In this document: positions 8,664 to 32,691 of the stretch, piece after piece
Layout of the letters: every line of letters begins with the position of its first letter
How positions within the stretch are numbered: the stretch's first letter is position 1
From: an uncultured Candidatus Saccharibacteria bacterium
Lineage (GTDB): Bacteria; Patescibacteriota; Minisyncoccia; Phycocordibacterales; UBA9973
Direction of reading: 5' to 3'
Assembly: GCA_964618925.1 (NCBI GenBank)
Contig: CAZUCZ010000002.1
Coordinates: forward strand, 1 to 48,299
DNA length: 48,299 nucleotides
Position numbers and translations under genes: made by a program
Notes under the pieces: model-generated
The model's input: the letters and a program-made list of their open reading frames with translations, nothing else
What the model was told of the DNA's origin: nothing
Databases searched by the model: none

Positions 8664-8697
8664 TGTTTGTTTTGTTTTTAAGTTTTTTACCATATAT

Positions 8698-8804
8698 ACC
8701 TGTCCCGTACTAAATTTTTGATTCAATTATATTAAGAAAAATGATTATAAAAGATAAAATTAAATTAATATCAAAAGCTAAAAGTAAAATTTTAGTACTG
8801 GGAT
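8698..8804 (+). repeat. CCCGTA-hairpin repeat, family B, copy 1
   Basis: Left arm acctgtcccgtactaaattttt (8698-) and inverted right arm aaaattttagtactggga (8787-8804). The right arm lies inside the first codons of the 8741 ORF. Confidence 0.7.
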
Positions 8805-11509: not shown

Positions 11510-11518
11510 GATAAACAT

Positions 11519-12010
11519 ATGACAGAAAAATTAAAACAAAGAAGTCGGGAAGAAATATTGAAACTACCAAAAGAAGCACAGGAAGCTATTAATGCCATAA
11601 ATTGGGCAAATATTTCAGAGGAAATTGGTAAAAAATATCTATCTAACGAAAATGAAATAAATAATTTCCAAGTTGAAACTTTATTAATCTTGACAGGAAT
11701 AGAAGATGCGCAGGACTATGCTTTGAATATAGAAAGAGAGGTGGGTACCAGTAAAACTGAAGCAGAAAAAATAGCGGATGAAGTATTTGAAAAAATATTA
11801 AAACCAATTACCGAAACACTCGAGGATAATATAAAGAAAAACCTAGGAAACAAAAGGACAACACCAATGCAAAATATTGATTTCATATTATCAGGCGGAG
11901 ACTATACAAGCTTTTTAGATACACCAGGCAGAGCAAATGAAACAGAAACCACGGATAAAATTCTAGGTACATCAAATATCCTCGAAGTGAAGGATAGACT
12001 CATTAATTAG
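11519..12010 (+). CDS. Hypothetical helical protein, paralog of the next gene
   Basis: 163 aa. Shares an N-terminal pattern LP.E...AI.A..W......ET.L.L.G...Y with ORF 12038..12850. Confidence 0.6.
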   Translation: MTEKLKQRSREEILKLPKEAQEAINAINWANISEEIGKKYLSNENEINNFQVETLLILTGIEDAQDYALNIEREVGTSKTEAEKIADEVFEKILKPITETLEDNIKKNLGNKRTTPMQNIDFILSGGDYTSFLDTPGRANETETTDKILGTSNILEVKDRLIN

Positions 12011-12037
12011 ATAGCTAAATAATGTTACAATTAAAGA

Positions 12038-12850
12038 ATGCAAATTATGTCAGACGACAACACAATAGATTTACTAAAAATAAAAATAGAGCGTGCAAAA
12101 GAACAATTGCCGATTGAAACATTAAATGCAATTGCAGCAGTAGACTGGAAGGCTGCTATCCTCGCACTCCGAGAAAGAAAAGGCTACAGCTTTGAACAGC
12201 TCGGCGACCTAGAAACAGAGACAGAACTCGTCCTTTGTGGACTTGTCAGCTCTACTGAATACCCAAAAGAACTCCAGCATCGCATGAATATATCCAAAGC
12301 AGAAGTAGATGAACTCGTACAAGAAATGAACGTAGCAGTATTCTCAAAAATCAAAGAAGAATTGATAAAAAACACAGAAAGAAAGAAGATTTTTCAAAAG
12401 AAAAATGCAGAAGAAGCACGGTCTATGGATATCTCTCCAGTACCTCCGGTTTCTATAAACACACCCCCTCCAGTCATAGATAAGGTAGATGCCGCAGTAC
12501 TACAAAAGGCGGGGATAGAAGTAGATAAAGTTGTGGATATAGACAAACCTGCACAGGATATCTTTAGCACAGGAGGCATAAGCACTGCACAACTAGAACC
12601 TGCCCGCAATGCTTCCAGCATAGCTGATGCAGGCGGGGAAAACAGAGAAGAGCTACTAAAGAAGATAGAAAACCCCGAGCCTCCTCAGTCACTACTCGCA
12701 CAAAAGCTCTCTAATACGGTACAAACCCCAACAACAACGACTGACCATGTTTTAGACAATATCAGCAAGCCAAACACCGACACACATATCCCCGTAGTAG
12801 AAAAAAGTATTAAAACCAAGATAGACCCGTACCGTGAAATCCCGGAGTAA
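12038..12850 (+). CDS. Hypothetical protein; helical N-domain paralogous to 11519..12010 plus a Pro/Thr-rich tail
   Basis: 270 aa. The N-terminal roughly 110 aa align with the preceding ORF. The C-terminal half is low complexity (PVPPVSINTPPPV..). Confidence 0.6.
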   Translation: MQIMSDDNTIDLLKIKIERAKEQLPIETLNAIAAVDWKAAILALRERKGYSFEQLGDLETETELVLCGLVSSTEYPKELQHRMNISKAEVDELVQEMNVAVFSKIKEELIKNTERKKIFQKKNAEEARSMDISPVPPVSINTPPPVIDKVDAAVLQKAGIEVDKVVDIDKPAQDIFSTGGISTAQLEPARNASSIADAGGENREELLKKIENPEPPQSLLAQKLSNTVQTPTTTTDHVLDNISKPNTDTHIPVVEKSIKTKIDPYREIPE

Positions 12851-12865
12851 TAGTAATCAATCATT

Positions 12866-13291
12866 ATGCAATTTAAAGTTCCACAATTTTTAGAAATAGA
12901 AGATAAGATTTTTGGACCCTTTACCTTTCGGGAGTTCGTGTATTTAGCCGGCGGCGCAGGGATGTGTTTTGTCGTGTATAAGTTACTTGGGCTCGTCTTG
13001 GGTGCGATACCAATACTCTTGATAGGAGGGTTTGCTGGTATGCTTACATTTTATCGCCCAAACAACAAACCTTTTCTCGACATGCTCGAAGCTGGTTTTA
13101 AATATGGCACACAAAGCAAACTCTATATCTGGAAACGACGCCAAATAAAATCCACCGACAAAAAGACGCCAAGTGGAGCGGAGAATAAAGACATGCTGCT
13201 ACAAGAAAACGGTATGCGCCTCACCGGCAATAAATTACGAGATTTGGCGTGGAGTTTAGATGTGCTTGATTTGAAAAAAGAAGGAAACTAG
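12866..13291 (+). CDS. PrgI-family / VirB3-like small membrane protein
   Basis: The N-terminus QFKVPQFLEIEDKIFGPFTFREFVYL followed by two TM helices is the pattern I associate with PrgI-family proteins of Gram-positive conjugation systems. It lies immediately upstream of VirB4. Confidence 0.65.
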   Translation: MQFKVPQFLEIEDKIFGPFTFREFVYLAGGAGMCFVVYKLLGLVLGAIPILLIGGFAGMLTFYRPNNKPFLDMLEAGFKYGTQSKLYIWKRRQIKSTDKKTPSGAENKDMLLQENGMRLTGNKLRDLAWSLDVLDLKKEGN

Positions 13292-13368
13292 GTCTTTAGG
13301 ATCTTAGGTTATGGTATGATACTAAAACCTCAGGTCCTAGTGCCCCAGATATCAGGACTAGAAACAAT

Positions 13369-14007
13369 ATGGCATTAAATGCAAAAGCAACACAAGAATT
13401 CGTACCGATAAAAGAAGTACGCGATGGAGTAATCGTGCTTAAAGATGGCGGCTTGCGAGCGATTGTCCTCGCAAATTCTGTAAACCTATCCCTAAAATCT
13501 GAAGACGAGCAGAAGGCAACGATAATTCAATTCCAAAATTTCTTAAATACCCTTGATTTTGCAATACAAATCTCAGTGCAATCACGCAGGCTTGATATTA
13601 GACCATATCTACTGCTCCTCGAGAATAGAATCAAAACCCAAAATGAACCACTGTTAAAAATTCAGACAAAAGAATACATAGAATTCATCAGGAGTTTTAC
13701 CGAATCTGTAAACATTATGACGAAAAGTTTCTTTGTGGTCGTACCATACACCCATACCGTACTCAAATCAGACACTGGATTCTTCCAAAAAATATTCAAA
13801 CGCCAAAGCAAGGAAGAAAAAGCAACACTCAAAGAAGAAGATTTTGAAGAAAAGCGTTCACAGCTCGAAGAGAGAGTAGGCGTCATCCAGCAAGGACTCG
13901 CACGCTGTGGTATAAAATCAGCAGCCCTCGGCACAGAAGAAGTGGTAGAAGTGTTCTACAAAGTCTTTAATCCGGGAGAAGTAGAAGGTAAAATAAGAAT
14001 TGAATAA
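13369..14007 (+). CDS. VirB4 N-terminal-domain fragment (separate ORF or interrupted gene)
   Basis: EFVPIKEVRDGVIVLKDGGLRAIV..NLSLKSEDEQ..IIQFQNFLNTLDFAIQISVQS resembles the first roughly 200 aa of Firmicutes-type VirB4 (Tn916 Orf16 / ConE-like). It is in the same frame as 14011..15864, separated only by TAA TAT. Confidence 0.55.
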   Translation: MALNAKATQEFVPIKEVRDGVIVLKDGGLRAIVLANSVNLSLKSEDEQKATIIQFQNFLNTLDFAIQISVQSRRLDIRPYLLLLENRIKTQNEPLLKIQTKEYIEFIRSFTESVNIMTKSFFVVVPYTHTVLKSDTGFFQKIFKRQSKEEKATLKEEDFEEKRSQLEERVGVIQQGLARCGIKSAALGTEEVVEVFYKVFNPGEVEGKIRIE

Positions 14008-14010
14008 TAT

Positions 14011-15864
14011 ATGGACTTTTTTAAAAAATTATTTGGTGGAAAAAGTAATAGTGCAAACCAAGGAGCTGAGATGAAGGCATCTATTATGTCTGTATTGCCA
14101 GGGGAGATATACACTTCGGCAAATATCGAACTCCAAGACATCATCGCTCCGTCTGCACTAAAAATAGAATCCAAATCCATAAACCTCGGAGAAAAAATAG
14201 CACGTACTTTTTTCATCATATCGTATCCTCGGTTTCTAACTGATAATTGGTTTTCACCAATCATCAACCTCGACAAGGTGTTTGATATCTCGATCTTCGT
14301 CCACCCGATAGATACATCACTCGCACTCAGACAATTCCAAAAAAAGGTTGCTGAGGTGCAAAGTCAGATCAGTGTGCGAGAGCGAAAAGGTATGGTCCGT
14401 GACCCGATGCTCGACACTGCATACCAAGACCTCGAAAGTCTACGTGATAGCCTTATCCAAGCACAGGAAAAAATGTTTGATATGGGCATATATATCACTA
14501 TATATGCCGATGATGAGATGGAGCTCTTCCGTATTGAAAATGAAATAAAATCAATGCTTGAATCACGTTTGATCTATATAAAACCAGCATTATTCCAACA
14601 AGAAGAAGGTTTTAAGAGTATTATCCCTATCAATACAGACCTCTTAAACATCCACCAAAAATTAAATTCAGAACCACTCTCGAGTACATTTCCATTTGTA
14701 TCATTTGACCTTACTTCAGATACAGGAATACTCTATGGTATCAATAGACATAATTCGAGTTTGGTAATCTTTGATAGATTCTCTCTTGAAAACTACAATT
14801 CAGTAACTTTTGCAAAATCCGGCTCAGGAAAATCGTATGCAACCAAACTAGAAATATTAAGGTCCCTCATGTTTGATGTAGATGTGATGGTAATCGACCC
14901 TGAAAAAGAATACGAATTCTTGTCTGAAGCGGTAGGGGGGAGATATTTTAATATTTCATTGTCATCCGAACACCACATGAACCCATTTGATCTACCGATG
15001 CCTCGCGAAGACGAGACTGCCGAAGACGTCCTTAGATCAAACATCATCAACTTGGTCGGACTATTTAGGCTCATGCTCGGTGGACTTACTCCAGAAGAAG
15101 ATTCGATTGTCGATCGTGCTATTTCAGAAACATACGCGATGAAAGACATCACACCTGAGTCTGATTTCTCAAATATTGAACCACCATTACTCTCTGATTT
15201 TGAAATGGTACTTTCGGGAATGGAAGGCTCGGATTCTATCATCTCTAGACTTTCTAAGTACACGAGGGGTTCATGGTCTACATTCCTAAACAGACCAAGT
15301 AACGTGGACATTAATAAAAAGTTCGTTGTATTTTCTATTCGAGACATGGAAGACGAACTCAAACCTGTGGCAATGTATATCATCATGCACTATATCTGGA
15401 ACGCTATTCGTAAAAACCTAAAGAAACGCTTGCTTGTGGTAGATGAGGCATGGTGGATGATGAAATCAGAAGATACTGCATCATTCTTGTACTCTATCGC
15501 AAAACGCGGTAGAAAATACTATCTCGGTCTTGCAACCATCACCCAAGATGCTGCAGACTTTATGAAGTCACCATATGGAGTACCGATCGTTACCAACTCT
15601 TCTATTCAGATGCTTTTAAAGCAATCACCAACCACCATCGACATCCTCCAAAAGACCTTCAACCTTACAGATGAAGAAAAATACCTACTGCTTGAGTCAG
15701 GAGTCGGAGAAGGGATATTCTTTGCAGGACTCAAACACGTGGCGATAAAGATAGTGGCTTCGTACACCGAAGACCAGATCATCACCTCAGACCCTTCACA
15801 GATACTCTTAAACAGAAAGGAAAAAGAAGACTACGAAGCAATGGTAAAGAAAGCCAAACTCTAA
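14011..15864 (+). CDS. virB4: Type IV secretion ATPase, VirB4 family (middle and ATPase domains)
   Basis: IIAPSALKIE...SYPRFL motif, Walker A FAKSGSGKSYATK, Walker B LLVVDEAWWMM, and the RKYYLGLATITQD motif. Confidence 0.85.
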   Translation: MDFFKKLFGGKSNSANQGAEMKASIMSVLPGEIYTSANIELQDIIAPSALKIESKSINLGEKIARTFFIISYPRFLTDNWFSPIINLDKVFDISIFVHPIDTSLALRQFQKKVAEVQSQISVRERKGMVRDPMLDTAYQDLESLRDSLIQAQEKMFDMGIYITIYADDEMELFRIENEIKSMLESRLIYIKPALFQQEEGFKSIIPINTDLLNIHQKLNSEPLSSTFPFVSFDLTSDTGILYGINRHNSSLVIFDRFSLENYNSVTFAKSGSGKSYATKLEILRSLMFDVDVMVIDPEKEYEFLSEAVGGRYFNISLSSEHHMNPFDLPMPREDETAEDVLRSNIINLVGLFRLMLGGLTPEEDSIVDRAISETYAMKDITPESDFSNIEPPLLSDFEMVLSGMEGSDSIISRLSKYTRGSWSTFLNRPSNVDINKKFVVFSIRDMEDELKPVAMYIIMHYIWNAIRKNLKKRLLVVDEAWWMMKSEDTASFLYSIAKRGRKYYLGLATITQDAADFMKSPYGVPIVTNSSIQMLLKQSPTTIDILQKTFNLTDEEKYLLLESGVGEGIFFAGLKHVAIKIVASYTEDQIITSDPSQILLNRKEKEDYEAMVKKAKL

Positions 15865-15879
15865 AAGAGTTTGGCTTTT
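15852..15879 (+). terminator. Rho-independent terminator overlapping the virB4 stop codon
   Basis: Perfect 11-bp stem agccaaactct / agagtttggct with loop aaa, followed by ttt. Confidence 0.6.
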
Positions 15880-15923
15880 GGTGCAAAAGAGGGGAAGGGC
15901 TTTGTAGAAGTTTCGCTACAGGG

Positions 15924-15929
15924 TATAAT
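15924..15929 (+). promoter_or_regulatory. -10 box TATAAT 7 nt upstream of the ATG at 15937
   Basis: gggtataattaatactATG. Confidence 0.35.
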
Positions 15930-15936
15930 TAATACT

Positions 15937-16926
15937 ATGAATAGAGGACGTACATCTTTAATACTCTTTTTTGTTATCTGTGCACTATTGGTCAGTGCAC
16001 CTATCAAAATTTACGCGGTATCTCCGAGCTCTATTAACGTAGATATAGCTCCAATAAACCCAAACCCAGGTGAAAATACTACGATCACACTCAGTAGTTA
16101 TGCCACAAACCTAGATACGGTAAATATTTCTTGGTTTGTAAATGGCAAGAAAACTTCCGCCGATACTGGAATGAAATCTTTTAGTATCGTGGCACCGAGC
16201 GCAGGCACTGAAACCACGGTCAGAGCTGTCGTATCCATGACTGACGGAGACATAGAGAAAAAGATAGTGATACGCCCATCTACACTGGTACTACTCTGGC
16301 AAGCCATAGATTCATATGTACCTCCTTTTTATAAAGGAAAGGCATTACCCACTCCTGATAGTCAAATCAAAGTAGTAGCTATGCCTGAAGCAAAAAATAA
16401 AACAGGTTTGGTAAACCCTAAAAATCTTATCTACACCTGGAAGAAAAATTACAGTAATGATGCTACAAGCTCTGGATATGGTAAAAATGCACTTACTTTT
16501 GTGAATGATTATTTGGAAGATTTAGATACCATCAGCGTAAATGCAGCAACTACTGATGGACAATACTCTTCAAATGCAAGTATTAATATTACTGCCTCAG
16601 ATCCAAAAATATCTTTTTATAAAAACGATCCTGCACTAGGAATACTCTGGAACCAGGCGCTCCATAATGGACATAAAATACAAGGTGATGAGATCATCGT
16701 CGGAGAACCATATTTTATTTCACCTAAAAATTTAACAAGCAATAACCTGATATGGAATTGGTTTATAAACAATAATCTGACAAATAATACCTTAAATTAC
16801 AGGAAAAATTGGCTACCAATAAAGATAGAAGGGGGAGTGACCGGCACATCAAACATAGGTCTACAGATAGAAAATCAAGCAGAGCTCCTCGGCAATGTAA
16901 GTAATTCAATCAATGTGGAATTTTAA
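15937..16926 (+). CDS. Secreted hypothetical protein, beta-rich (329 aa)
   Basis: The ATG at 15937 gives MNRGRTSLILFFVICALLVSAPIKIYA, a signal peptide. The track start at 15871 is TTG inside the upstream terminator. Confidence 0.65.
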   Translation: MNRGRTSLILFFVICALLVSAPIKIYAVSPSSINVDIAPINPNPGENTTITLSSYATNLDTVNISWFVNGKKTSADTGMKSFSIVAPSAGTETTVRAVVSMTDGDIEKKIVIRPSTLVLLWQAIDSYVPPFYKGKALPTPDSQIKVVAMPEAKNKTGLVNPKNLIYTWKKNYSNDATSSGYGKNALTFVNDYLEDLDTISVNAATTDGQYSSNASINITASDPKISFYKNDPALGILWNQALHNGHKIQGDEIIVGEPYFISPKNLTSNNLIWNWFINNNLTNNTLNYRKNWLPIKIEGGVTGTSNIGLQIENQAELLGNVSNSINVEF

Positions 16927-16927
16927 A

Positions 16928-17000
16928 ACCTGTCCCGTATTAAATTTTTGATTAAAGCAAATGACCATTATAAATAACAACTTAAAATTTTAGTACTGGG
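16928..17000 (+). repeat. CCCGTA-hairpin repeat, family B, copy 2
   Basis: acctgtcccgtattaaatttttgatt ... aaaattttagtactggg directly abutting the ATG at 17001. The interior resembles copy 1. Confidence 0.7.
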
Positions 17001-18161
17001 ATGAAAAAACTTTTATCTCATATATTTATTTTTATCTCAATCGTTGCAGTATGTAATGGTTCATTACAGGTATATGCAGCACCTGGTGATATAGACTGTA
17101 GTCTACCTTCAAACCAAAATAATATAGAATGTCTTACCCCGGTACAATCATCGACAACAGCCGAACAAAGAGCGATAGATGCCCAGCAGCAAGCGCAAGA
17201 ATTATTACGAGTCAGTGAAGCAGCAAAAAATGGGAAATTAGCTGGTGAAAATACAGTAGGAGATGGAAGCTATCATCTCCTCCAACCCCTCCCTTGTAAA
17301 GACGGAGAGGAAGGATGTGTAAATGGGAAACTTACATCTTTTAACCCTGCAGAGAGTGGTAAACTCGGAGAATATTTAAACTTTGGTATTAGATTGTTTA
17401 TTGGGTTATGTGCAGTAGCGGCAGTGGTAATGATTGTAGTAGGTGGTATTGAGTATGCAACCAGTGAGTTAAGTCATAGTAAGACTGCAGCGAAAGATAG
17501 GATATATAATGCGATCTTTGGGTTATTGCTTGCTCTGGGATCATATACGATCTTGTATACGGTAAATCCTGACTTGCTGAAGACTGATTTTGATGTGGGT
17601 GGGGGGACGCTGACGAGTAGTGGGGAGATATCAATAAAAGAGTTAGAAGAAAGAATTATTACCGTTGGAGGTCCAATTACTGATAAAAACCGAGGTAGCA
17701 TTGGTACTCCTTGTGATGCTAATGTCATTTTTAACGCAGCACAATCTGCTGGTCGTACTTTAACTAAAGAACAGGCAGCTGCTATGGGATGTATCGGTGG
17801 AGCTGAATCTGGGGGGTGTAAAAATGTACAAGCTAATGTCACAGGAGTAACTAGTAGTGCTTCTGGTCCATTTCAAATTTTAGGATCAAATAGAACAAGA
17901 CTTGGTAACACCACAGCCTGTAAAAACAATCCAAGTAGTCTTGAATGCAATGCTACAATAGCTGCAGGATTATTACTAAGACAAACAAATTATCGAGACT
18001 GGCTAGATACTCAATACCCATGTAGTAATGCAAAATGTGTGATTAGATTTGATCCTCAGAAGGTAGATAGAGGAGTACAACTTCCAGAGTGGGTAAAGGT
18101 TGGTAAAAACTGGGTAAAAACAGACAGGAAAAGAAATCCTTATACAGGTTGTGGTTTGTAA
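17001..18161 (+). CDS. Pilin-like (VirB2/TrbC-type two-TM module) protein fused to a C-terminal lytic-transglycosylase-like domain
   Basis: Signal peptide, then LLQPLPC...FGIRLFIGLCAVAAVVMIVVGGI (TM1), a charged loop, and AIFGLLLALGSYTILYTV (TM2). The C-terminal part has GGAESGG...SASGPFQI, resembling the SLT catalytic E-S and G-x-x-Q-I motifs. Confidence 0.6.
   Translation: MKKLLSHIFIFISIVAVCNGSLQVYAAPGDIDCSLPSNQNNIECLTPVQSSTTAEQRAIDAQQQAQELLRVSEAAKNGKLAGENTVGDGSYHLLQPLPCKDGEEGCVNGKLTSFNPAESGKLGEYLNFGIRLFIGLCAVAAVVMIVVGGIEYATSELSHSKTAAKDRIYNAIFGLLLALGSYTILYTVNPDLLKTDFDVGGGTLTSSGEISIKELEERIITVGGPITDKNRGSIGTPCDANVIFNAAQSAGRTLTKEQAAAMGCIGGAESGGCKNVQANVTGVTSSASGPFQILGSNRTRLGNTTACKNNPSSLECNATIAAGLLLRQTNYRDWLDTQYPCSNAKCVIRFDPQKVDRGVQLPEWVKVGKNWVKTDRKRNPYTGCGL
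17277..17612 (+). repeat. 336-bp inverted repeat, copy 1 (pilin module); partner at 32121..32456
   Basis: Manual alignment to the reverse complement of 32121..32456. Positions 17277-17533 are identical (257 nt). Six mismatches lie in the last 79 nt, all synonymous. Confidence 0.95.
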
Positions 18162-18191
18162 TACTTAAAATAAGTATTAATAGATAAGCAA

Positions 18192-18200
18192 TGATATAAT
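18192..18200 (+). promoter_or_regulatory. Extended -10 (TGaTATAAT) 9 nt upstream of the ATG at 18210
   Basis: atgatataatatatcatacATG. Confidence 0.4.
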
Positions 18201-18209
18201 ATATCATAC

Positions 18210-19631
18210 ATGTCGAAAAGAAATTTTATACTTTTAATAATCATTTTGAGTATAGTCCTCGTAGGACTACTTGGTTATTTTTATATGAGTAGAAATACTC
18301 CAACAGGAGACAGCGCAATCCCTGGAGTAAATTTCCTTTCACAATTCAACCCTTTTAAAAGTAATGTAAATACAGACACAGGGAGCGAAAACCCTGGGGC
18401 AGGTGATACTGGTGGTGACCAACCCGGAGAAAACGGAGAAACCCCAATCACCACCCTCCACAAAGTCTCGAATATGCCTATCGCTGGCTTTATCGTCTAC
18501 CCCAAAGAAAGATTGAAAGAAATACCACCAGAAGATACAACGACAGGAGGAGAGAGCAACGTCACCACGACCCCAGTAGAAGAAATACCGAATGATAGTG
18601 CTACATCGAGTTCACGCACGACAGTCGCAGCAGATCTAAAGAAAAAGTTACTCGTCACAAAAAAGCCAATTGTTCCAGACACAGAGTTTGTCACCGCTGT
18701 AAGATATGCAGATCGTGCGAGTGGAAATATCTATCAGTCATTTGCAGACAAGATCCAAGAACACAAGTTCTCGGGAACAGTGATCCCTAAAATATACGAT
18801 GCGTATTTTGGCAATAATGCGAATGCCGTCTTAATGCGACATCTTAAAATAGACAATGTAACTATCGAGACTTTCTTAGGCACACTACCTAAAGAAAAAT
18901 TAGGAGATGACACAACCACAATAGCTGAAATGAAAGGGGGCTTTTTAACTAACAATATACAAGATGTTAGTGTTTCACCTGACGGATTAAAGGTGTTTTA
19001 TCTCTCTCCTGTAGGAGACGGGGTAATAGGCACAATACAAAATCTAATAGATGGTAAAAAGAATCAAATATTTAACAATGCATTTACCGAATGGAATTCA
19101 TGGTGGCCAAATAATAATGTCATTACACTTACCACCAAGCCTTCTTTTGGAACACTCGGCTATATGTATATGATCGATATCGCAAAGAAAAGCTTTACGA
19201 AAGTACTCGGCGACATTAATGGACTCACCACACAAATGAGCCCAAATGGTAAGCTCGTGCTTGTAGGCACCAATGATTTATCCCTCTACGTATATCATGT
19301 CGACACAAAGACCTACGACAAATTAGGTGTAAAAACACTCCCAGAAAAATGCACTTGGAATAAGGTAAGTGACACTGTATATTGTGCAGTCCCAAGCACT
19401 ATCGAGACTGCAAACTATCCAGATGATTGGTATCGTGGAGAAATATCGTTCTCTGATCAGATTTGGAAAATCAATCTTCAAGATGGAAGTACAACACTGA
19501 TCGCAGATCCACTTGTGATCTCAGGCGGGGAGGACACTGATGGTATCCAACTTGCAGTCGACACAAACGAAGATTACTTATTCTTCATAAATAAAAAAGA
19601 CTCCTTTTTATGGGAGCTTGAATTAAAATAA
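18210..19631 (+). CDS. Membrane-anchored hypothetical protein with a low-complexity linker and beta-propeller-type (PD40/TolB-like) repeats
   Basis: N-terminal TM segment ILLIIILSIVLVGLLGYFY and a G/T/P-rich linker. Repeats such as VSPDGLKVFYLS and MSPNGKLVLVGT are present. Confidence 0.65.
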   Translation: MSKRNFILLIIILSIVLVGLLGYFYMSRNTPTGDSAIPGVNFLSQFNPFKSNVNTDTGSENPGAGDTGGDQPGENGETPITTLHKVSNMPIAGFIVYPKERLKEIPPEDTTTGGESNVTTTPVEEIPNDSATSSSRTTVAADLKKKLLVTKKPIVPDTEFVTAVRYADRASGNIYQSFADKIQEHKFSGTVIPKIYDAYFGNNANAVLMRHLKIDNVTIETFLGTLPKEKLGDDTTTIAEMKGGFLTNNIQDVSVSPDGLKVFYLSPVGDGVIGTIQNLIDGKKNQIFNNAFTEWNSWWPNNNVITLTTKPSFGTLGYMYMIDIAKKSFTKVLGDINGLTTQMSPNGKLVLVGTNDLSLYVYHVDTKTYDKLGVKTLPEKCTWNKVSDTVYCAVPSTIETANYPDDWYRGEISFSDQIWKINLQDGSTTLIADPLVISGGEDTDGIQLAVDTNEDYLFFINKKDSFLWELELK

Positions 19632-19648: not shown

Positions 19649-20140
19649 TTATATTTCGCCAACATATTTAATAACTACATGCCTCGTAGGTCCAAAACCT
19701 GCGGACTCTGTCTTTAAGTCAGACATTTCAGATAAAAACTCGTGTATAATACGACGATCAAATGCAGGCATAGGGTCAACCTCAACATTTGCTTTAAAAT
19801 ATCGTGCTCGTTCAGCCATCATGTGAGCAATCGTACGAATACTTTCAACTTTTCGTTTTTGAAAACCATTAATGTCAACGAGGATGGATGTATCGCGTTT
19901 CTTGTTCGTATTTTCTGCTACACTAGGGTTTGGTTCATTTACTTCTATTATTCTTCGTATAAGATGATTTAACGCTTGTAGAGCCTCTCCCTCATGCTGT
20001 GTAAAGAAATGTGGTTCATTCACTTCCACTGAAAACCATGTGGTGTTACCTTTGTCTTCAATGATCGTAATGTCAGCAACTTGCACTTTAGTCTTTTCAA
20101 TAAGTTCTTTTATTACATTTTTTATATCTTCGTGTTTCAT
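19649..20140 (-). CDS. jag: Jag/KhpB-type RNA-binding protein (KH + R3H)
   Basis: R3H-like motif RRIIHEFL...GFGPTRHVVIKY. Conserved position downstream of yidC. Confidence 0.8.
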   Translation of the reverse strand: MKHEDIKNVIKELIEKTKVQVADITIIEDKGNTTWFSVEVNEPHFFTQHEGEALQALNHLIRRIIEVNEPNPSVAENTNKKRDTSILVDINGFQKRKVESIRTIAHMMAERARYFKANVEVDPMPAFDRRIIHEFLSEMSDLKTESAGFGPTRHVVIKYVGEI

Positions 20141-20145
20141 ATGTA

Positions 20146-20904
20146 TTATTTGACTGAAAACTCAACATCAGTGACTTTTTCTTTCTTTAATTTATCTTGT
20201 TTACGGTTTACATAGATTTGTTGTGCCACCGCAAACAGATTACTTGTGATCCAATAGAGGGCAATCGCACCAGAAATCCTATATGCGATAAAGGCTACAA
20301 TGAAAGGAAAGATGTATTTCATCTGCAAATTCATGCTCTTACTAAAACTCTCAGCAAACCCACCTGGTTCATTATTAGATAGGCTTGGGGTCGGTGTAGG
20401 CATAAAATATGCTTGTAAATACTGGGAAATACCTGCGAGCACTGCAAGAAGTATACTTTTACCACTAATATCTAGGATACCAAGGAAGATCATATTCATA
20501 TGGTCCGGGATATGGATGAAAGAATACATTGCTTCGGGTTGGAAGCTGATACCCTTTAAAAATACATAATAAAGGGCAAAAATAATAGGAATCTGAATTA
20601 AAACAAGCAAACAACCTGAAAAAGGGTTGGTTTTATGTGTTTTATATAGCTCGAAGGTCAAGCGTGCTTGTTCTTCTTTACTTGCGCCACTATTTTTTAT
20701 TTTATTGATTTCAGGAGTTAATATAGCCATTTGAGCCTGGCTTTGTATGGATTTTTGAGAAAGAGGGAATAGGACGATTTTAACCAAAATAGTAAGCACT
20801 ATCACAGCAAGACCAACATCCCCTCCGGGGATGATTGAAATTAAAAACGCAAGGGCGTTTATAAGAGGATGATATAAAACTATATTCCATATATGAGCGA
20901 TCAT
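20146..20904 (-). CDS. yidC: Membrane protein insertase YidC (short form)
   Basis: QAQMAILTPEINKIK...ELYKTHKTNPFSGCLLVLIQIPIIFALY signature and synteny with rnpA/yidD. Confidence 0.9.
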   Translation of the reverse strand: MIAHIWNIVLYHPLINALAFLISIIPGGDVGLAVIVLTILVKIVLFPLSQKSIQSQAQMAILTPEINKIKNSGASKEEQARLTFELYKTHKTNPFSGCLLVLIQIPIIFALYYVFLKGISFQPEAMYSFIHIPDHMNMIFLGILDISGKSILLAVLAGISQYLQAYFMPTPTPSLSNNEPGGFAESFSKSMNLQMKYIFPFIVAFIAYRISGAIALYWITSNLFAVAQQIYVNRKQDKLKKEKVTDVEFSVK

Positions 20905-20914
20905 TAGGTCATTC

Positions 20915-20958
20915 TACCCCGAAGTAAAATTTTTAGCAAAATTTACTACGGGGCAAGT
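20915..20958 (-). repeat. CCCGTA-hairpin repeat, family B, short diverged copy between yidD and yidC
   Basis: The minus strand reads acttgccccgtagtaaattttgctaaaaattttacttcggggta. It has the same left-arm motif as copies 1-3 with a short loop. Confidence 0.6.
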
Positions 20959-20971
20959 AGGAAAAATTTCT

Positions 20972-21187
20972 TTATTTTACTGGGTCGATATGATTTGTCT
21001 GCCACGGATGACAACGCAAAATACGCAAAAATCCTAAATATATGCCCTTGAAAACCCCGTATTTATCGATTGCTTGCTGTGTATACATAGAACAGGTAGG
21101 GTAAAAAACACAATTTCGCTTAAAAAAGACTGAAATATAACGCTGATAGAGACTAATGAACTGTATTATATATTTTTTTAATTTCAT
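20972..21187 (-). CDS. yidD: Membrane protein insertion efficiency factor YidD
   Basis: CVFYPTCSMYTQQAIDKYG...ILRCHPW motif. The start is taken at MKLKKY, giving a 35-nt overlap with rnpA. Confidence 0.85.
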   Translation of the reverse strand: MKLKKYIIQFISLYQRYISVFFKRNCVFYPTCSMYTQQAIDKYGVFKGIYLGFLRILRCHPWQTNHIDPVK

Positions 21188-21479
21188 CTTCGAGTGTGGA
21201 AACGTCGTCTTGATACTTTTTAAACACAAAAACACCCAAGAAACCAGTGGGGAATAGGTCTATATACTTTGAGAGAGCTTTATAACCCCTTCGACGCAAA
21301 AGATTCCTTTTCACTGCCAGTTTTGCAACGTTTTTAGGAGCGATAAAGGATATACGAGGGGGTAACGTATCCTGTGTATGTATATATCTAAAGGTTAAAT
21401 GAGGAGATGCCAAAAAACCACCCTCTGTAAAGAGGCGGTTTATGTGTTTTTTGTCTACTCGATTGTTTTTGGAGAGCAT
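21153..21479 (-). CDS. rnpA: Ribonuclease P protein component
   Basis: 108 aa and basic, with an LSKNNRV.K..I..LF..G pattern. Lies between rpmH and yidD. Confidence 0.85.
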   Translation of the reverse strand: MLSKNNRVDKKHINRLFTEGGFLASPHLTFRYIHTQDTLPPRISFIAPKNVAKLAVKRNLLRRRGYKALSKYIDLFPTGFLGVFVFKKYQDDVSTLEDEIKKIYNTVH

Positions 21480-21552
21480 CCCAGTACTAAAATTTTAAAT
21501 TATTAATAATAGTGACTGATATACGCTATGTGAATTTAGTACGGGACAAGTA
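21480..21552 (-). repeat. CCCGTA-hairpin repeat, family B, copy 3, between rpmH and rnpA
   Basis: The minus strand reads acttgtcccgtactaaatt...aaaattttagtactggg directly abutting the rnpA ATG. Confidence 0.7.
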
Positions 21553-21571
21553 ATACACCCAAAAGAGGGAA

Positions 21572-21706
21572 CTACACAGAGAGTTTCGCTCGTCCTTTTC
21601 TTCTTCTTCGTGTGAGAACAGCAGAACCTGTCTTTGTTCTAGATCTAACTAGAAAACCGTGGGTTCGAGCTCTTTTTCTCTTTTTTGGTTGGTATGTTTG
21701 CGACAT
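21572..21706 (-). CDS. rpmH: 50S ribosomal protein L34
   Basis: Hand translation gives [44 protein letters not shown] (44 aa). It is below the ORF-track size cutoff. Confidence 0.9.
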
Positions 21707-21806
21707 AGCTTTAATATACATCAAAAGTGGGCTTTAGGCAAATATATTCTGATTCTTGGAAAATACTACTCAGGTATAAAGAGGTATATTGCCATGCCTC
21801 AGATTG

Positions 21807-21815
21807 TTATCCACA
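21807..21815 (+). promoter_or_regulatory. Perfect DnaA box TTATCCACA upstream of dnaA
   Basis: Exact 9-mer in the rpmH-dnaA intergenic region. Confidence 0.6.
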
Positions 21816-21869
21816 GCTTATCAACATAGTTATTATTTTTGTAAATGTTTCATTTTTGAGTCCAAGTAG

Positions 21870-21875
21870 TATAAT
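21870..21875 (+). promoter_or_regulatory. -10 box TATAAT 9 nt upstream of the dnaA ATG
   Basis: agtagtataatgtcttacacATG. Confidence 0.4.
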
Positions 21876-21884
21876 GTCTTACAC

Positions 21885-23231
21885 ATGGATACAAAAGAAC
21901 TTTGGAGGAATTGTTTGATTCACATTGAAGCCAACTTATCTAAAGCTAATTTTAGTACGTGGTTTAAAAATACCTCTATTTTAAAAGAAGAAATGGGAAT
22001 TATCTATATACGAGTCCCAAATGAGTTCGTACGTGATTGGTTAATGAACAAATATCACAAACTTATCACTAAAACCATTGCTGATGCACATGAAAACATG
22101 CGGGGAGTTGAGTATGTCATTACAAAAATAGAGCCAAATAGACAAGAAAATGACACCATGAGTAAAGCTCCTTATATTAATAAGGAGTTACCTCTCCGAG
22201 ATCTATATATCAACCCAGATGACAACTTAAATCCTCGCTATCACTTTGATTCTTTCATTGTGGGTGGCTTTAATGAGCTGGCTTATGCTGCAGCCCAAGC
22301 CATAATCGAAAGTCCTGGTACAAAATACAATCCTTTTTTCATTTATGGACCAACTGGGCTTGGTAAAACTCACCTTCTCCAAGCAGTGGGGAATACTATT
22401 AAAGAAAAGTATGAGAATAAGAAAGTGCATTATATGACTCTGGAAAAGTTTGCAACTGATTTTATAAACTCACTGCAGAGCAACAAAGCTAATTCTTTTA
22501 AAGAGAAATATAGAAAATACGACTTACTCATTATAGATGATATTCAATTCATAGGAAAAATGGAAAAAATTCAAGAAGAACTTTTCCATACATTTAATAC
22601 ATTCTATGAAAACAACAAGCAGATAATATTTTCTTCTGACAAACACCCTAATTATATTCCTGAGCTTGCGGATAGATTAAAATCAAGATTTTCTGCAGGA
22701 ATGATAGTGGATGTTTCAATGCCAGAATACGAATCACGCCTCGCAATCTTGAAAGTAAAACTAAAAGAATTAAATATAGACCTCGAACCAGAAGTTGTAG
22801 AGTATATTGCTTCAGCAGTAGAGGGCAACATCCGTGAGCTGGAAGGCAGCCTAAATATCATTGTATGCCAATATCGCCTTAAAAATAGACCTATTACGTT
22901 GTTTGAGGTAAAAAACTTACTCAAAAACAACATGAAGCCAAAGAAAAATATTGCGATAAAAGAAGTAGTGAAGATAGTAGGGGATTATTACAAAATAGAA
23001 GAATCTTCGATCTATGAAAAAATAAGAAAAAAAGAGATTGTAAAAGCAAGACAAGTGATCATGTATTTACTTCGTGAAGACTTTAATATTTCATATCCTC
23101 TTATTGGACAGAAATTAGGTGGTAAGGATCATACTACGGTTATACATTCATGTCTTAAGATAAAAGAAGATTTAAAAAATGATCCGCAGTTATTACAAGA
23201 ATTAGAACAGATCCGTATTATGTTTAAATAG
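21885..23231 (+). CDS. dnaA: Chromosomal replication initiator protein DnaA
   Basis: Walker A GPTGLGKTHL, AAA+ motifs, and a C-terminal DNA-binding helix (GGKDHTTVIHSCLKI). Confidence 0.95.
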   Translation: MDTKELWRNCLIHIEANLSKANFSTWFKNTSILKEEMGIIYIRVPNEFVRDWLMNKYHKLITKTIADAHENMRGVEYVITKIEPNRQENDTMSKAPYINKELPLRDLYINPDDNLNPRYHFDSFIVGGFNELAYAAAQAIIESPGTKYNPFFIYGPTGLGKTHLLQAVGNTIKEKYENKKVHYMTLEKFATDFINSLQSNKANSFKEKYRKYDLLIIDDIQFIGKMEKIQEELFHTFNTFYENNKQIIFSSDKHPNYIPELADRLKSRFSAGMIVDVSMPEYESRLAILKVKLKELNIDLEPEVVEYIASAVEGNIRELEGSLNIIVCQYRLKNRPITLFEVKNLLKNNMKPKKNIAIKEVVKIVGDYYKIEESSIYEKIRKKEIVKARQVIMYLLREDFNISYPLIGQKLGGKDHTTVIHSCLKIKEDLKNDPQLLQELEQIRIMFK

Positions 23232-23455
23232 TTGTTTATAAGATGGTGATAAGTGTAAATAAAATTGTGAATAAAAAAGGATAAATAAATTGTTTTTGTA
23301 AAATAAAAAAAATTTAACACAAAAACAAAAAGTTATTATATAGAAATCAAATAAAAAATAATCAGAATAACCAATAGTATCAATGTAAAAATAATTTATC
23401 CACTTATTAACAACACTAATAGTATTAATAAATTTAATAGATAAGATATAAACAT
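23232..23455. other. Candidate oriC / DNA-unwinding region (dnaA-dnaN spacer)
   Basis: 224-bp, extremely AT-rich spacer with DnaA-box-like 9-mers: tgtgaataa at 23266-23274 and ttatccact at 23396-23404, each 1 mismatch from consensus. Confidence 0.5.
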
Positions 23456-24553
23456 ATGAAGCTCGAATGTAAAATAGAAAATCTAAAGAATGGAATTTCT
23501 CAAGCGGAAAGAATAGTAGGAAAGAATCTCACACTTCCTGTTCTTAGCTCTATCTTAATAACAACTAGTAAAAATTCTCTTATCCTTAGATCTACAAACT
23601 TAAGTATTGGTATTGAAATTCAAATCCCAGCAAAAATTGAAAGAGAAGGAGTTATGGCAATATCCGGTTCAGTATTAAATGGTGTATTTTCAAATTTTTC
23701 ACAAAATGAGAATGTGTCACTCGAAGGAATAGATGGTAATTTATTAGTTACAACCAAGAAAAGTAAAATAAAACTAAAAGGTCAACCACACGAAGATTTC
23801 CCCACAATACCAAAGGTTGCAGGGGTTGATTTTGAAATAGATTCAAAGAAATTAATCGAGGGTATAAAGTCTGTATACTATAGTTCACTTGTGTCAGATA
23901 TCAAGCCTGAAATCTCAAGTGTGTATATCTATTCAAAAGATGATCAACTCGTATTCGTATCCACGGACTCATTTCGACTTGCAGAAAAAAAGGTTAAGGT
24001 TAAAAACCTCCCGGAAGTACCTGGTATTCTTATTCCATATAAAAATATATCAGAAATGCTTCGAATTTTCGGGGATTTTAACGGTGTTTTAAAAGTTTGT
24101 TTTAATAAAAATGCGATTTCTTTCTCTTCTGACTCTATATATCTTACTTCACGAGTGATCGACGGCATTTTCCCAGATTATCATCAAATTATTCCAAAAG
24201 AATCCACTACAAATGTAGTTGTTTTAAAACAAGATTTATTAAATGCACTCAAACTTTCTAATATATTTTCAGATAAGTTTAATCAGGTAAATCTATCTAT
24301 TAATGTAAAAGAAAAAATATTTGAACTATCTTCCGTGAATCATGATATTGGAGAAAATAAGACAAATGTAGATGCAGCATTAACTGGGGAGAATATAGAG
24401 CTAGGATTTAATTATAAATATTTCTTGGATTGTTTTCAGTCTATTACCACAGACAGTATGTCTCTGAAACTCACTGGTGCCTCTAAGCCTATCGTGATCG
24501 GAGCTATCTCTGACCCATCCTTCACATACCTTATCATGCCTATGAATAAGTAA
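23456..24553 (+). CDS. dnaN: DNA polymerase III beta sliding clamp
   Basis: 365 aa immediately after dnaA, with typical three-domain clamp length and motifs (ending ..YLIMPM). Confidence 0.9.
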   Translation: MKLECKIENLKNGISQAERIVGKNLTLPVLSSILITTSKNSLILRSTNLSIGIEIQIPAKIEREGVMAISGSVLNGVFSNFSQNENVSLEGIDGNLLVTTKKSKIKLKGQPHEDFPTIPKVAGVDFEIDSKKLIEGIKSVYYSSLVSDIKPEISSVYIYSKDDQLVFVSTDSFRLAEKKVKVKNLPEVPGILIPYKNISEMLRIFGDFNGVLKVCFNKNAISFSSDSIYLTSRVIDGIFPDYHQIIPKESTTNVVVLKQDLLNALKLSNIFSDKFNQVNLSINVKEKIFELSSVNHDIGENKTNVDAALTGENIELGFNYKYFLDCFQSITTDSMSLKLTGASKPIVIGAISDPSFTYLIMPMNK

Positions 24554-24814: not shown

Positions 24815-27010
24815 TTAGTTGGTGATGATTGGTAGACCACCATATTTGTATTTATTCTGAGCCCACCAGTTTTGTACAGGGATTTCCCAGTGATTGAATT
24901 GAGGATCACTTTCTGGATTTGTTGGGGCTGGTCCAGTGACATCGTTCTTGTTTACAAAGTATAGAATAGTGTGGACATCGCCTTGCCATTCTCCACGGAG
25001 GATTGGTTTTGTGTTTGGGTCTATATATAGATCCGGTGCTTCAAATTTTTCGTCAGGAATTTTTTGTAAGGCTTGAGTTATAAAATCATGCCAGATTGGT
25101 CCTGCAAGTGCAGCTCCACCTTTTTTCATTGGTTTATTGTCGTTATTTCCTGCCCAGACACCCACCGCGATAGAAGGCGTGTATCCTACAGTCCAAGCAT
25201 CTTTGTTGTTGTTTGTTGTTCCTGTTTTTACTGCTACATCTCTCCCTGGGATTTCTAGTACAGAATGGGCGCCAAATGTAGGAATACGTGATTCATCACG
25301 TTTCAAAATGTCTGACATAGTAAGCGCTGTGTTTTTAGGTAATACTTCAATTTGATTTGGTTGATATTCTTCTAGAACCTGACCAGTCGCGTCTTCTATT
25401 TTTAGAATTCCGGTGTAAGGATTGCGTACACCATTATTTCCAAAAACACTATATGCAGACGTGAGATCAAGTAATGTGACTTCACCACCTCCGATAACGA
25501 GTGTAAGCCCATAACGGCTTATATCGCTCAATGTGGTGATACCCATGGCTTGGGCTGTCTTCAGTGAATTATTTAGCCCAGCGAGGTAGAATAGCTTTAC
25601 TGCAGGTATGTTTCTCGATTCTGCAAGTGCGCTACGTAGGGTGATCGGTCCGACAGTCTTACCATCATAATCTTGTGGCATATAGCATTCTGATTGGCTG
25701 TGCCCTGGGAGTGCTTTACCATATGCATTACAAGTTGTTTGGAATTCTGTAGGTACATCAAATAATATGGTACTCGGTGTAAAACCTTCATTAAATGCAG
25801 TCGCATAGATAAATGGTTTAAATGAAGAACCTGGTTGACGCGCTGCGGTTGCGACATTGAAATTCCCATCTATGTCTTTATCAAAATAATCTCTAGACCC
25901 TACCATTGTTAAGATTTGCCCTGTTTTTGGATCTATTGCCACTAGTGCAGCATTTGTACCATTCCAATCTTTTGTATTCTTTAAGGCGCCATCTTTGACT
26001 ATTTGTTCACCTTTCGCTTGGAGATCATAATCAAGGGTGGTGGTGACTTTGAGTCCACCAGATTCGAGTATACCTGGACCATATTTTTGTTCTATGTAGT
26101 CTTTGATGAAAAATACAAAGTGGGGAGCCTTGATACCAGTATTTGATTGAGGCATAAATGTTACCACTTCATTTTTTGCAGCATCATATTCTGCTTGCGT
26201 TATGAATTTAAGCGCGAGTTCTCGAGAAAGGACTAGGTTCTTTCTCGCTTCGAGTTTGTCTCTATTTTTGCCATAGGGCGATAGTAGTGTAGGGGATTGA
26301 GGTATTGCTGCGAGGTATGCAGATTCGGCGATAGTGAGATCTCTTGCACCCTTATTGAAATACGTACGACTTGCTTCTTCGACTCCATATATATTGCCCC
26401 CATATGGGTTTTCATTGAGATAATATTCAAGAATTTTATCTTTTGGGAGAGACCGGTCGATCTTTATTGCGAGTATCCATTCTTTTATTTTTCTTGTGTA
26501 AGATTTTTCGGGTGTAAGGAGAGTATTCTTTACGAGTTGTTGGGTGATGGTCGATCCTCCTTGGGTGCGTCCAATACTGAGGAAATTTGCTAACGCAGCA
26601 CGAATGATCGAAGTGACTCGTATGCCTCCATGACTATAAAATTCGGCATCTTCTATGGCAATCGTCGCATTCTTGATATTAATACTCATGTCTGCAAATC
26701 CGATATCTGTCCTTTTTTCATCTCTATGGATATCGTACAAGACGACGGTGCCTGTGCGATCATATATTTTTGTAGAGTTTTCCACTTTTCTATCTTGGAA
26801 TGAATGAAAATCAGGAATCTGCAATGTGGAAAGCCAGATGATAATAACCGCAACAATAAACACACAAATCCCCGCACTAAACAAAAGTACGTTTTTCCAG
26901 AAATGGTGGTTTTTCTTAATATGTTTTACTGTTTTTTTGATCCAGGTGTGTATGTTTTTGATGAATGTATCCATTAATACAATCATATCAGAAAAACAAA
27001 TATTTCTCAT
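24815..27010 (-). CDS. ponA: Class A penicillin-binding protein (glycosyltransferase + transpeptidase)
   Basis: GT51 motifs EDAEFYSHGG and RTQGGSTITQQLVKN, transpeptidase motif SSFKP, and an N-terminal TM anchor. Confidence 0.9.
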   Translation of the reverse strand: MRNICFSDMIVLMDTFIKNIHTWIKKTVKHIKKNHHFWKNVLLFSAGICVFIVAVIIIWLSTLQIPDFHSFQDRKVENSTKIYDRTGTVVLYDIHRDEKRTDIGFADMSINIKNATIAIEDAEFYSHGGIRVTSIIRAALANFLSIGRTQGGSTITQQLVKNTLLTPEKSYTRKIKEWILAIKIDRSLPKDKILEYYLNENPYGGNIYGVEEASRTYFNKGARDLTIAESAYLAAIPQSPTLLSPYGKNRDKLEARKNLVLSRELALKFITQAEYDAAKNEVVTFMPQSNTGIKAPHFVFFIKDYIEQKYGPGILESGGLKVTTTLDYDLQAKGEQIVKDGALKNTKDWNGTNAALVAIDPKTGQILTMVGSRDYFDKDIDGNFNVATAARQPGSSFKPFIYATAFNEGFTPSTILFDVPTEFQTTCNAYGKALPGHSQSECYMPQDYDGKTVGPITLRSALAESRNIPAVKLFYLAGLNNSLKTAQAMGITTLSDISRYGLTLVIGGGEVTLLDLTSAYSVFGNNGVRNPYTGILKIEDATGQVLEEYQPNQIEVLPKNTALTMSDILKRDESRIPTFGAHSVLEIPGRDVAVKTGTTNNNKDAWTVGYTPSIAVGVWAGNNDNKPMKKGGAALAGPIWHDFITQALQKIPDEKFEAPDLYIDPNTKPILRGEWQGDVHTILYFVNKNDVTGPAPTNPESDPQFNHWEIPVQNWWAQNKYKYGGLPIITN

Positions 27011-31230: not shown

Positions 31231-31384
31231 TGTTTTTATATTATGCTATATTGTTTGAGTCCACAGAAGTAGGGTGTTTATCAACACAGTATTCACACCT
31301 CTATACACATTATAGCATTTTATTGTATTTACACTGTTTTTTACGTAGTACAATATGTGTAGTCAAGGGCAGGCACGTTTTTTT

Positions 31385-31408: not shown

Positions 31409-31416
31409 TAAAGAAG

Positions 31417-31557: not shown

Positions 31558-31565
31558 TTTTTTAT

Positions 31566-32684: not shown

Positions 32685-32691
32685 TAGAATT

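Follow-up and report, generated by a model that had tools for sequence, protein, structure and literature searches.

The closest described counterparts of the genes reported here belong to two different components of type IV secretion systems (T4SSs), the VirB2-like pilins and the VirB1-like peptidoglycan hydrolases. The VirB2/TrbC family is represented in Patescibacteria by T4SS_pilin (PF18895, Quinonero-Coronel et al. 2025, PMC12102498). The VirB1-like hydrolases, such as PrgK of pCF10, TraG of pIP501, CwlT of ICEBs1 and TcpG of pCW3, are membrane-anchored extracellular enzymes encoded in MPF-FATA-type T4SS clusters. We analysed a stretch of 48,299 nucleotides (nt) from an uncultured bacterium of the Patescibacteriota (contig CAZUCZ010000002.1 of assembly GCA_964618925.1, positions 1 to 48,299; GC 38%), hereafter the window, in which two genes, W1 (17001..18161, + strand) and W2 (31566..32684, - strand), each encode a VirB2-like pilin module followed by a putative peptidoglycan-active domain, here called the head. 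In our preferred reading, which we hold at a probability of roughly 0.55, W1 and W2 would be T4SS-docked VirB2-like display scaffolds that carry a peptidoglycan enzyme outside the cell and merge the roles of VirB2 and VirB1.

W1 and W2 resemble the patescibacterial T4SS_pilin proteins in their profile match, their signal peptide and their two-helix hairpin with a short basic loop, and W1 also in its place beside PrgI/VirB3, TrsD and VirB4, close to dnaA. Unlike these pilins, the fused proteins add an enzymatic domain of approximately 150-240 amino acids (aa) after the second transmembrane helix (TM2), and some carry large N-terminal domains. The fused form occurs as single genes with near-identical paralogous modules, whereas the pilins of Saccharimonadia and Microgenomatia form divergent tandem arrays whose members average 25% identity (PMC12102498). 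With the VirB1-like hydrolases the fused proteins share, besides an extracellular position and a place in such a cluster, the catalytic repertoire of SLT/muramidase plus NlpC/P60 or CHAP. However, the known hydrolases hold two to three catalytic domains behind one N-terminal transmembrane helix, whereas W1 and W2 have one head each and a VirB2-like hairpin as their anchor; W2 is encoded away from the cluster, and the heads of the fused family extend to VanY, M15, YkuD, Amidase_2 and a domain without a family match.

No description of a VirB2-hydrolase fusion was found in the literature searched, in keeping with the first-pass annotation of this DNA, which knew of no characterised pilin-hydrolase fusion. 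A survey of T4SSs (PMC12102498), a nomenclature review (PMC12857230), the transposon-sequencing paper on S. epibionticum (PMC10633639) and a perspective on Patescibacteria (PMC11665869) discuss VirB2-like pilins and make no mention of a fusion to a wall enzyme; the same holds for a further paper citing PF18895. The adjacent accessions PF18895 (T4SS_pilin) and PF18896 (SLT_3) suggest that the Pfam curators may have seen such a protein. Databases name these proteins 'hypothetical protein', 'pilin' or 'cell wall-associated NlpC family hydrolase', and a single name based on their architecture is merited.

W1 and W2 are built alike, from a signal peptide, a linker, the module and a C-terminal domain, as the first-pass annotation had described, and the identical module that it put at about 112 aa is exactly that long. 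Aligned by BLASTP (E = 4e-77), the two proteins are identical at 123 of 138 positions, and the longest identical run of 112 aa covers residues 93-204 of W1 and 77-188 of W2. The linkers (62 and 46 aa) are mutually unrelated, and the signal peptide of W2 ends VKA/Q. In the DNA the modules lie in a repeat on opposite strands, 370 nt long and 95.9% identical, with 15 differing positions. The identical core holds 5 nt differences, every one of them synonymous in a codon-by-codon comparison, which argues that W1 and W2 are two real, distinct loci under purifying selection. Beyond the repeat all codons differ on the N-terminal side and most on the C-terminal side; the edges of identity are sharp and coincide with the module.

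The module runs from a segment with a Cys pair (LLQPLPCKDGEEGC) through TM1, the loop EYATSELSHSKTAAKDR, which holds three K/R residues, and TM2 to the motif NPDLL. In W1, TM1 (residues ~125-154) is strongly hydrophobic (Kyte-Doolittle 2.8) and TM2 spans residues ~168-188. The AlphaFold2 model of full-length W1 (mean predicted local distance difference test, pLDDT, 68.6) forms a hairpin of helices 121-154 and 158-188, for which Foldseek returned generic helical hairpins only. W1 matches the Pfam family T4SS_pilin (PF18895) with 27.7 bits (cut-off 26.6), and so do 72 of 74 fused proteins, the window's own two included (best E = 8.9e-11). The match of W1 to TrbC/VirB2 (PF04956) reaches 12.9 bits against a cut-off of 27.9, and 19 of the 74 match this family at E < 0.01. 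A weak module match (E ~0.01) was given by the NCBIfam model of a mycoplasma 'pilin-like conjugal transfer protein', and a profile of the module run against PDB sequences matched no VirB2, TraA or TrbC structure. At 386 and 372 aa, with heads of ~180 aa, W1 and W2 exceed a small single-domain pilin, which is ~70-130 aa long when mature.

Since the basic loop would be cytoplasmic by the positive-inside rule, both ends of W1 and W2, including the C-terminal heads, are predicted to lie outside the cell. The conserved Cys pair and the eight Cys of the W1 head fit an extracytoplasmic location of the N-terminal part of the module and of this head. The prediction and the PF18895 match agree with the VirB2/TrbC-like hairpin behind a signal peptide and the outward-facing hydrolase domains proposed at first pass. 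A holin/endolysin-like nature of the hairpin was set aside, as the signal peptide, the PF18895 match and the T4SS synteny favour VirB2.

The head of W2 is an NlpC/P60 domain (PF00877; E = 4.5e-13, 49.5 bits against a cut-off of 23), as had been claimed from its motifs. Aligned to PDB 3h41, C266 and H332 fall at the catalytic Cys and His positions, and E344 stands where 3h41 has a third His; in related NlpC/P60 heads Cys and His are invariant (10/10) and the third position is N, D or E. In W1, the motifs AES and GPFQI are present, with E269. Its head family (17 aligned) has an invariant Glu-Ser (E269-S270 in W1), G-x-x-Q-I, a Trp and several Cys; in head numbering, E65, S66, G85, Q88, I89 and W130 together with the Cys are invariant in alignments A6 and A7. 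The residues expected of a catalytic site are therefore present in both proteins. Iterated searches join the W1 head family to a larger one, a member of which, the head of locus L001, just passes SLT_3 (27.1 bits, cut-off 27); hhalign relates the two families with 100% probability, but the sets share members. A ten-sequence profile of the W1 head matched an i-type lysozyme (3ab6, E = 0.002), the silkworm c-type lysozyme (1gd6, E = 0.0035) and dozens of human lysozyme entries in the PDB, the i-type and c-type matches spanning E = 0.002-0.05, and all of these alignments cross the catalytic Glu and the G-x-F-Q-I strand. The AlphaFold model of this head alone (pLDDT 76, predicted TM-score 0.77) is mainly helical. 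On these alignments the W1 head is lysozyme/SLT-like, and a hydrolase or a lytic transglycosylase would be alike possible; the first-pass annotation had called it lytic-transglycosylase-like, for which the motifs and profiles speak.

W1 belongs to a T4SS cluster of Gram-positive type with PrgI, TrsD and VirB4, where it is the second gene after VirB4 (Table 1). This cluster (6564..19631) adjoins the replication origin region with jag/R3H, yidC, dnaA and dnaN (19649..24553); neither a relaxase nor a coupling protein was recognised in the window. The same layout is known from other Patescibacteria, in which T4SS clusters often adjoin dnaA and lack a relaxase (PMC12102498). W2 follows the gene of a PilB-type ATPase, with 7 nt between that gene's stop codon and the start codon of W2 (junction 32685..32694). 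This order of PilB, fusion and RuvB recurs at loci L002 and L006, which come from the same metagenome-assembled genomes (MAGs) as L001 and L003, respectively.

How common the fusion appears depends on the query. In word-index searches, the module alone retrieved only bare pilins of Patescibacteria (108-214 aa) and missed the fused relatives; the closest of these pilins share the whole module at 40-64% identity and then have short variable tails. The W1 head alone gave no match, though full-length relatives with 76% identical heads exist, which marks a limit of the word index. The full-length query retrieved 75 further proteins of 212-667 aa, nearly all with the module and a tail of 150-225 aa, so that rarity judged from one query (module, head or full length) would be misleading. 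Among 74 fused proteins, the Pfam heads were SLT_2 and SLT_3 (10 each), VanY (9), NlpC/P60 (7), YkuD and SLT (3 each), Peptidase_M15_4 and CHAP (2 each) and Amidase_2 (1). An exhaustive phmmer search of 1.84 billion cluster representatives gave 11,308 matches at E <= 1e-3 and 1,929 at E <= 1e-10, and 103 of the best 150 have a tail of at least 130 aa.

To place the genes in context, module alignment was applied to one genome per GTDB species; this yielded 454 confirmed relatives, of which the best 80 loci were examined, all from Patescibacteria MAGs labelled Nomurabacteria, Paceibacterota or similar. The W1 slot is kept in ~76 of the 80, with VirB4 ~3 kb upstream, the gene o351 directly upstream and o473 directly downstream, and yidC and dnaA lie ~3-4.5 kb from the module gene in these loci. 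Tails of at least 130 aa occur in 65 of 81 module open reading frames (ORFs), and the remaining 16 have 3-93 aa. When all ORFs within +/-10 kb were scanned with a hidden Markov model, 79 of the 80 loci proved to have a single ORF with the module, so that the slot gene is the one VirB2-like gene that can be detected in the cluster. Pfam assigned the 65 long tails to VanY (15), NlpC/P60 (9), SLT_2 (5), SLT_3 (5), SLT (4), M15_4 (2), YkuD (2), CHAP (2) and Extensin-like_C (1), and all recognised tail families are peptidoglycan enzymes. What the first-pass annotation took for two versions in one genome is thus a widespread, polymorphic family of Patescibacteria with at least 13 types of head, and the SLT, NlpC/P60 and CHAP extensions that it had suggested looking for across the Candidate Phyla Radiation (CPR) were all found.

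Some relatives depart from this plan. Locus L080 (3334-5516) holds two fused pilin genes with different heads in tandem in the T4SS slot, the sole such locus of the 80, and one of its heads has no family match and holds the motif NNYGNI. N-terminal extracellular extensions of 300-630 aa precede the module at L066 (8117-10000), L072 (6558-7991), L069 (2198-3409), L065, L076 and L077. A Pfam search of the long extensions of ten relatives gave one match, FN3 / purple-acid-phosphatase-N-like in L066. With extensions before it, the module can bear cargo at both ends. Bare pilins (for example P0012, P0015, P0016 and P0026) often end in Cys-rich tails of 50-90 aa, which may be binding domains.

The turnover of heads far outpaces the divergence of modules. 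BLAST sorts the 67 long tails into 13 clusters, and no two of the five largest are related by hhalign (probability below 4% for each pair). Loci and their nearest module neighbours had heads of the same cluster in just 8 of 66 comparisons, or 2 of 18 if only modules at least 80% identical are counted. Heads also move between slots: the L004 protein, although encoded in the T4SS slot, matches the PilB-slot protein W2 at 52% identity along its whole length. One of the joint-largest head clusters (17 of the 67 tails, ~150-165 aa; for example L008:10343-10846, L009:10343-10804 and L012:10337-10825) had no Pfam match, no PDB match by profile and no hhalign link to other clusters. Its invariant residues are E102, W104, H106, H115 and D123 (H-x7-D) and H159-W-H161, with four Cys, and it may be an undescribed LAS-type Zn peptidase.

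Such exchange of unrelated C-terminal enzymes behind a conserved N-terminal module at one locus recalls the polymorphic toxins and effectors (Tae/Tge/Tlde1 of type VI secretion systems, LXG, Rhs and contact-dependent inhibition, CDI). Wall-targeting enzyme classes like those of the heads also serve as antibacterial effectors. The pilin fusions differ in that they have no cognate immunity gene, the same 473-aa gene standing downstream whatever the head, and in that their module is a hairpin integrated in the membrane, unlike known trafficking domains, which are soluble. Because o473 stands immediately downstream of the pilin gene with all head types, it is no immunity gene for a particular head. 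A polymorphic toxin/immunity pair was therefore rejected: no downstream gene is head-specific, and W2 is followed by a hairpin and then ruvB.

The modules, by contrast with the heads, evolve in concert within a genome. Besides W1 and W2, the pairs L001/L002 (93.3% DNA identity over 329 nt) and L003/L006 (94.1% over 219 nt) are near-identical in the module, whereas modules of the same slot in different genomes share at most 70% DNA identity or are undetectable by blastn. Both slots are conserved, yet the paralogous modules are near-identical within three genomes, so that repeated gene conversion confined to the module is the simplest explanation. This implies that both proteins fit one common partner or interface.

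The architecture, the catalytic residues, the synteny, the position as sole VirB2-like gene within 10 kb, the variety of heads and the homogenised modules are seen in the sequences, and the topology is predicted from them; docking into the T4SS, enzymatic activity and the wall that is cut (own or host) are inferences. The VirB2-like hairpin would be exported via its Sec signal peptide and would sit in the membrane with its short basic loop in the cytoplasm and one peptidoglycan-active enzyme displayed at its outer C-terminus. It would attach to the T4SS encoded beside W1 (PrgI/VirB3, TrsD, VirB4 and conserved unknowns) or be incorporated into it. The head of W1 would cut glycan strands in the manner of a lysozyme or lytic transglycosylase, that of W2 would cut stem peptides as an NlpC/P60 enzyme, and jointly they would supply the two activities united in PrgK, TraG or CwlT. 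Because gene conversion keeps the modules near-identical, the two enzymes would share one docking or polymerisation interface and one site of action.

This reading touches the puzzle of VirB2-like pilins in monoderm cells, where VirB1 is mostly unrecognisable if VirB2 is present. Most Patescibacteria with VirB2 have no recognisable VirB1 (PMC12102498), and VirB1-like matches have been found to associate with VirB4 in Paceibacteria only. A merger of the two would therefore explain part of the seemingly missing VirB1: in a large clade the VirB2 and VirB1 components would be one protein, and the sole VirB2-like subunit of a cluster could bear a bulky outward-facing enzyme. The homogenisation of modules within a genome and the exchange of heads between species both bear on mechanism.

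Several observations weigh against display scaffolds docked at the T4SS. With 26.4 bits, W2 falls 0.2 below the PF18895 cut-off of 26.6 that W1 passes. The W1 head scores 15.5 bits with SLT_3 (PF18896; E = 0.024), below the cut-off of 27, and Foldseek searches of PDB and BFVD with the model of this head gave no match at E < 0.9; the lysozyme assignment consequently rests on sequence profiles. W2 lies outside the T4SS cluster and is probably co-transcribed with the PilB-type ATPase, so the comparison with T4SS components drawn at first pass for both copies holds for the location of W1 and not for that of W2. About 20% of species carry a bare pilin in the W1-type slot, hence the head is not obligatory. 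Non-lytic heads occur, YkuD being an L,D-transpeptidase and VanY a carboxypeptidase. The extreme turnover of heads would be unexpected if the enzyme merely remodels the cell's own wall, and for patescibacterial VirB2-like proteins neither pili nor docking to VirB4/VirB6 has experimental data (PMC12857230).

The rapid swapping of heads hints at an external, variable target. A VirB1-like role on the cell's own wall nevertheless fits the data equally well as a host target, and the missing immunity genes and non-lytic heads do not decide between own and host wall.

Conjugative pili such as the F-pilus and the T-pilus have the termini of their VirB2-family pilins on the outer surface of the filament. 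This outward orientation would suit a pilus in which the modules polymerise and enzyme heads on the surface or at the tip digest the host wall, opening a path for uptake or delivery, a reading akin to the wall-cutting filament tip of the first-pass annotation, and one that we regard as possible, though doubtful. Fast swapping and unrelated head clusters are the pattern expected for adaptation to varied target walls, and homogenised modules would permit co-polymerisation. In S. epibionticum a pilin array in the T4SS cluster is essential for epibiotic growth (PMC10633639), and an impairment of host envelopes by wall-degrading enzymes has been suggested (PMC11665869). On the other hand, no pilus has been demonstrated for any monoderm T4SS, a head of ~20 kDa on each subunit would crowd a VirB2-type helical lattice, and 79 of the 80 loci offer no bare pilin within +/-10 kb that could dilute the heads. 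There is no head-specific immunity gene either, and the present data do not identify the target wall.

A more specific form of this idea, which we think unlikely, is that the sole VirB2-like protein of a Paceibacteria-type T4SS polymerises or extrudes as a short enzyme-studded conduit that drills the host wall, gene conversion keeping the paralogues co-polymerisable and head swaps retuning the conduit to new host wall chemistry. The heads would then be a determinant of host range. More generally, the family is a candidate protein set for the breach of a wall by ultrasmall bacteria at the contact site, and its heads suggest a possible genomic marker of host-wall specificity. The fusion is widespread and sits in a system known to be essential; in Patescibacteria the T4SS is required for epibiotic growth in the one species tested.

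It is improbable that W1 and W2 are housekeeping autolysins or wall remodellers without a tie to the T4SS, in which the pilin-derived hairpin is a mere anchor and the enzyme serves CPR growth and division. The heads do include synthetic and trimming enzymes (YkuD, VanY, M15) of the kind usual in ordinary wall maturation, W2 is placed away from the T4SS cluster, with the housekeeping genes RuvB and PolA around it, and the bacterium makes its own peptidoglycan, with a class A penicillin-binding protein (PBP) encoded at 24815..27010. However, this explanation does not account for a slot between VirB4-o351 and o473 kept in ~76 of 80 species, and neither replacement by unrelated enzyme classes between close relatives nor absence from ~20% of species would be expected of it.

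C-terminal processing of TrbC/VirB2 pilins is established. A pro-protein, the head of which is cleaved at NPDLL during pilin maturation, so that an ordinary pilin remains and a wall hydrolase or effector is released in soluble form, would parallel the C-terminal trimming of TrbC, and we judge it more improbable still. An invariant N-P and a conserved D-L-L stand at the outer end of TM2 in bare and fused pilins alike, and bare pilins have variable C-terminal tails of 3-93 aa after the NPDLL-type motif. Against this, the cluster showed no TraF-like candidate for a maturation protease, there is no evidence of a cleavage site, and the motif may merely mark the membrane boundary.

Although a 370-nt near-identical repeat might in principle mislead an assembler, an artefact (a fusion from a frameshift, mis-assembly across the repeat or a mis-called ORF) is ruled out for practical purposes by the 15 differences between the copies, synonymous within the identical core, their four distinct flanks, the continuous fusion in the independent genomes of 65 species and in over 100 metagenomic cluster representatives, and the same two-copy arrangement in the slot pairs L001/L002 and L003/L006.

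Table 1. Positions of W1, W2, their parts and neighbouring features in the window (positions count from its first letter).
Feature	Position	Strand	Description or evidence
W1	17001..18161	+	386 aa; VirB2-like pilin module and lysozyme-like head; slot orthologous in ~76/80 related loci
W1 signal peptide	17001..17078	+	aa 1-26; MKK..., hydrophobic core, VYA/AP; model helix 2-19
W1 variable extracellular linker	17079..17264	+	aa 27-88; low pLDDT; no kinship to W2 linker
W1 VirB2-like module	17265..17612	+	aa 89-204; PF18895 match
W1 module TM1	17373..17462	+	
W1 module loop, predicted cytoplasmic	17463..17501	+	
W1 module TM2	17502..17564	+	followed by NPDLL junction
W1 head	17628..18158	+	aa 210-386; lysozyme/SLT_3-like; GPFQI at aa 289; 8 Cys
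W1 putative catalytic Glu269	17805..17807	+	profile alignment with lysozymes
W2	31566..32684	-	372 aa; VirB2-like pilin module and NlpC/P60 head
W2 VirB2-like module	32121..32468	-	aa 73-188; 112 aa identical to W1
W2 NlpC/P60 domain	31584..31898	-	aa 263-367; Pfam
W2 Cys266	31887..31889	-	alignment to PDB 3h41
W2 His332	31689..31691	-	alignment to PDB 3h41
W2 Glu344	31653..31655	-	alignment to PDB 3h41
DNA repeat copy 1 (gene-conversion tract)	17258..17627	+	blastn
DNA repeat copy 2	32106..32475	-	blastn
Four conserved cluster genes (699, 922, 163, 270 aa) 5' of PrgI	6564..12850	+	synteny
PrgI (VirB3-like)	12866..13291	+	Pfam PrgI 1e-08
TrsD/TraD-like, resembles VirB4 N-terminal region	13369..14007	+	TrsD 2.8e-06 and VirB4_plasma 2.8e-10 (NCBIfam), both below cut-off
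VirB4-like ATPase (CD1110 family)	14011..15864	+	NF045971 1.7e-110, 370.5 bits (cut-off 325); Pfam P-loop_TraG
o351, conserved 351-aa secreted protein	15871..16926	+	directly upstream of W1; synteny
o473, conserved 473-aa membrane-anchored protein	18210..19631	+	directly downstream of W1; synteny
PilB/GspE-type ATPase	32692..34398	-	Pfam T2SSE 1.4e-116 and MshEN
Terminator-like hairpin and T-run 3' of W2	31393..31406	-	consensus scan only

Among the neighbours of W1, o351 and o473 had no Pfam or NCBIfam match. They stand on either side of the pilin slot in almost every related locus and are candidates for surface components of the T4SS. The 922-aa cluster protein gave only a weak match to the conjugal-transfer model MMCAP2_0566. 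On the side of W2, no other type IV pilus genes adjoin the pair formed with the PilB-type ATPase, and the intergenic region between W2 and ruvB (31231..31565, 335 nt), which had no Rfam match, contains the terminator-like hairpin. The remainder of the window consists of chromosomal housekeeping genes (UvrD, KsgA, PBP1, TyrRS, RuvC, PolA, UvrB and UvrA), and a tRNA-Lys gene (anticodon UUU; 38431..38504, - strand) is the sole RNA gene detected in it.

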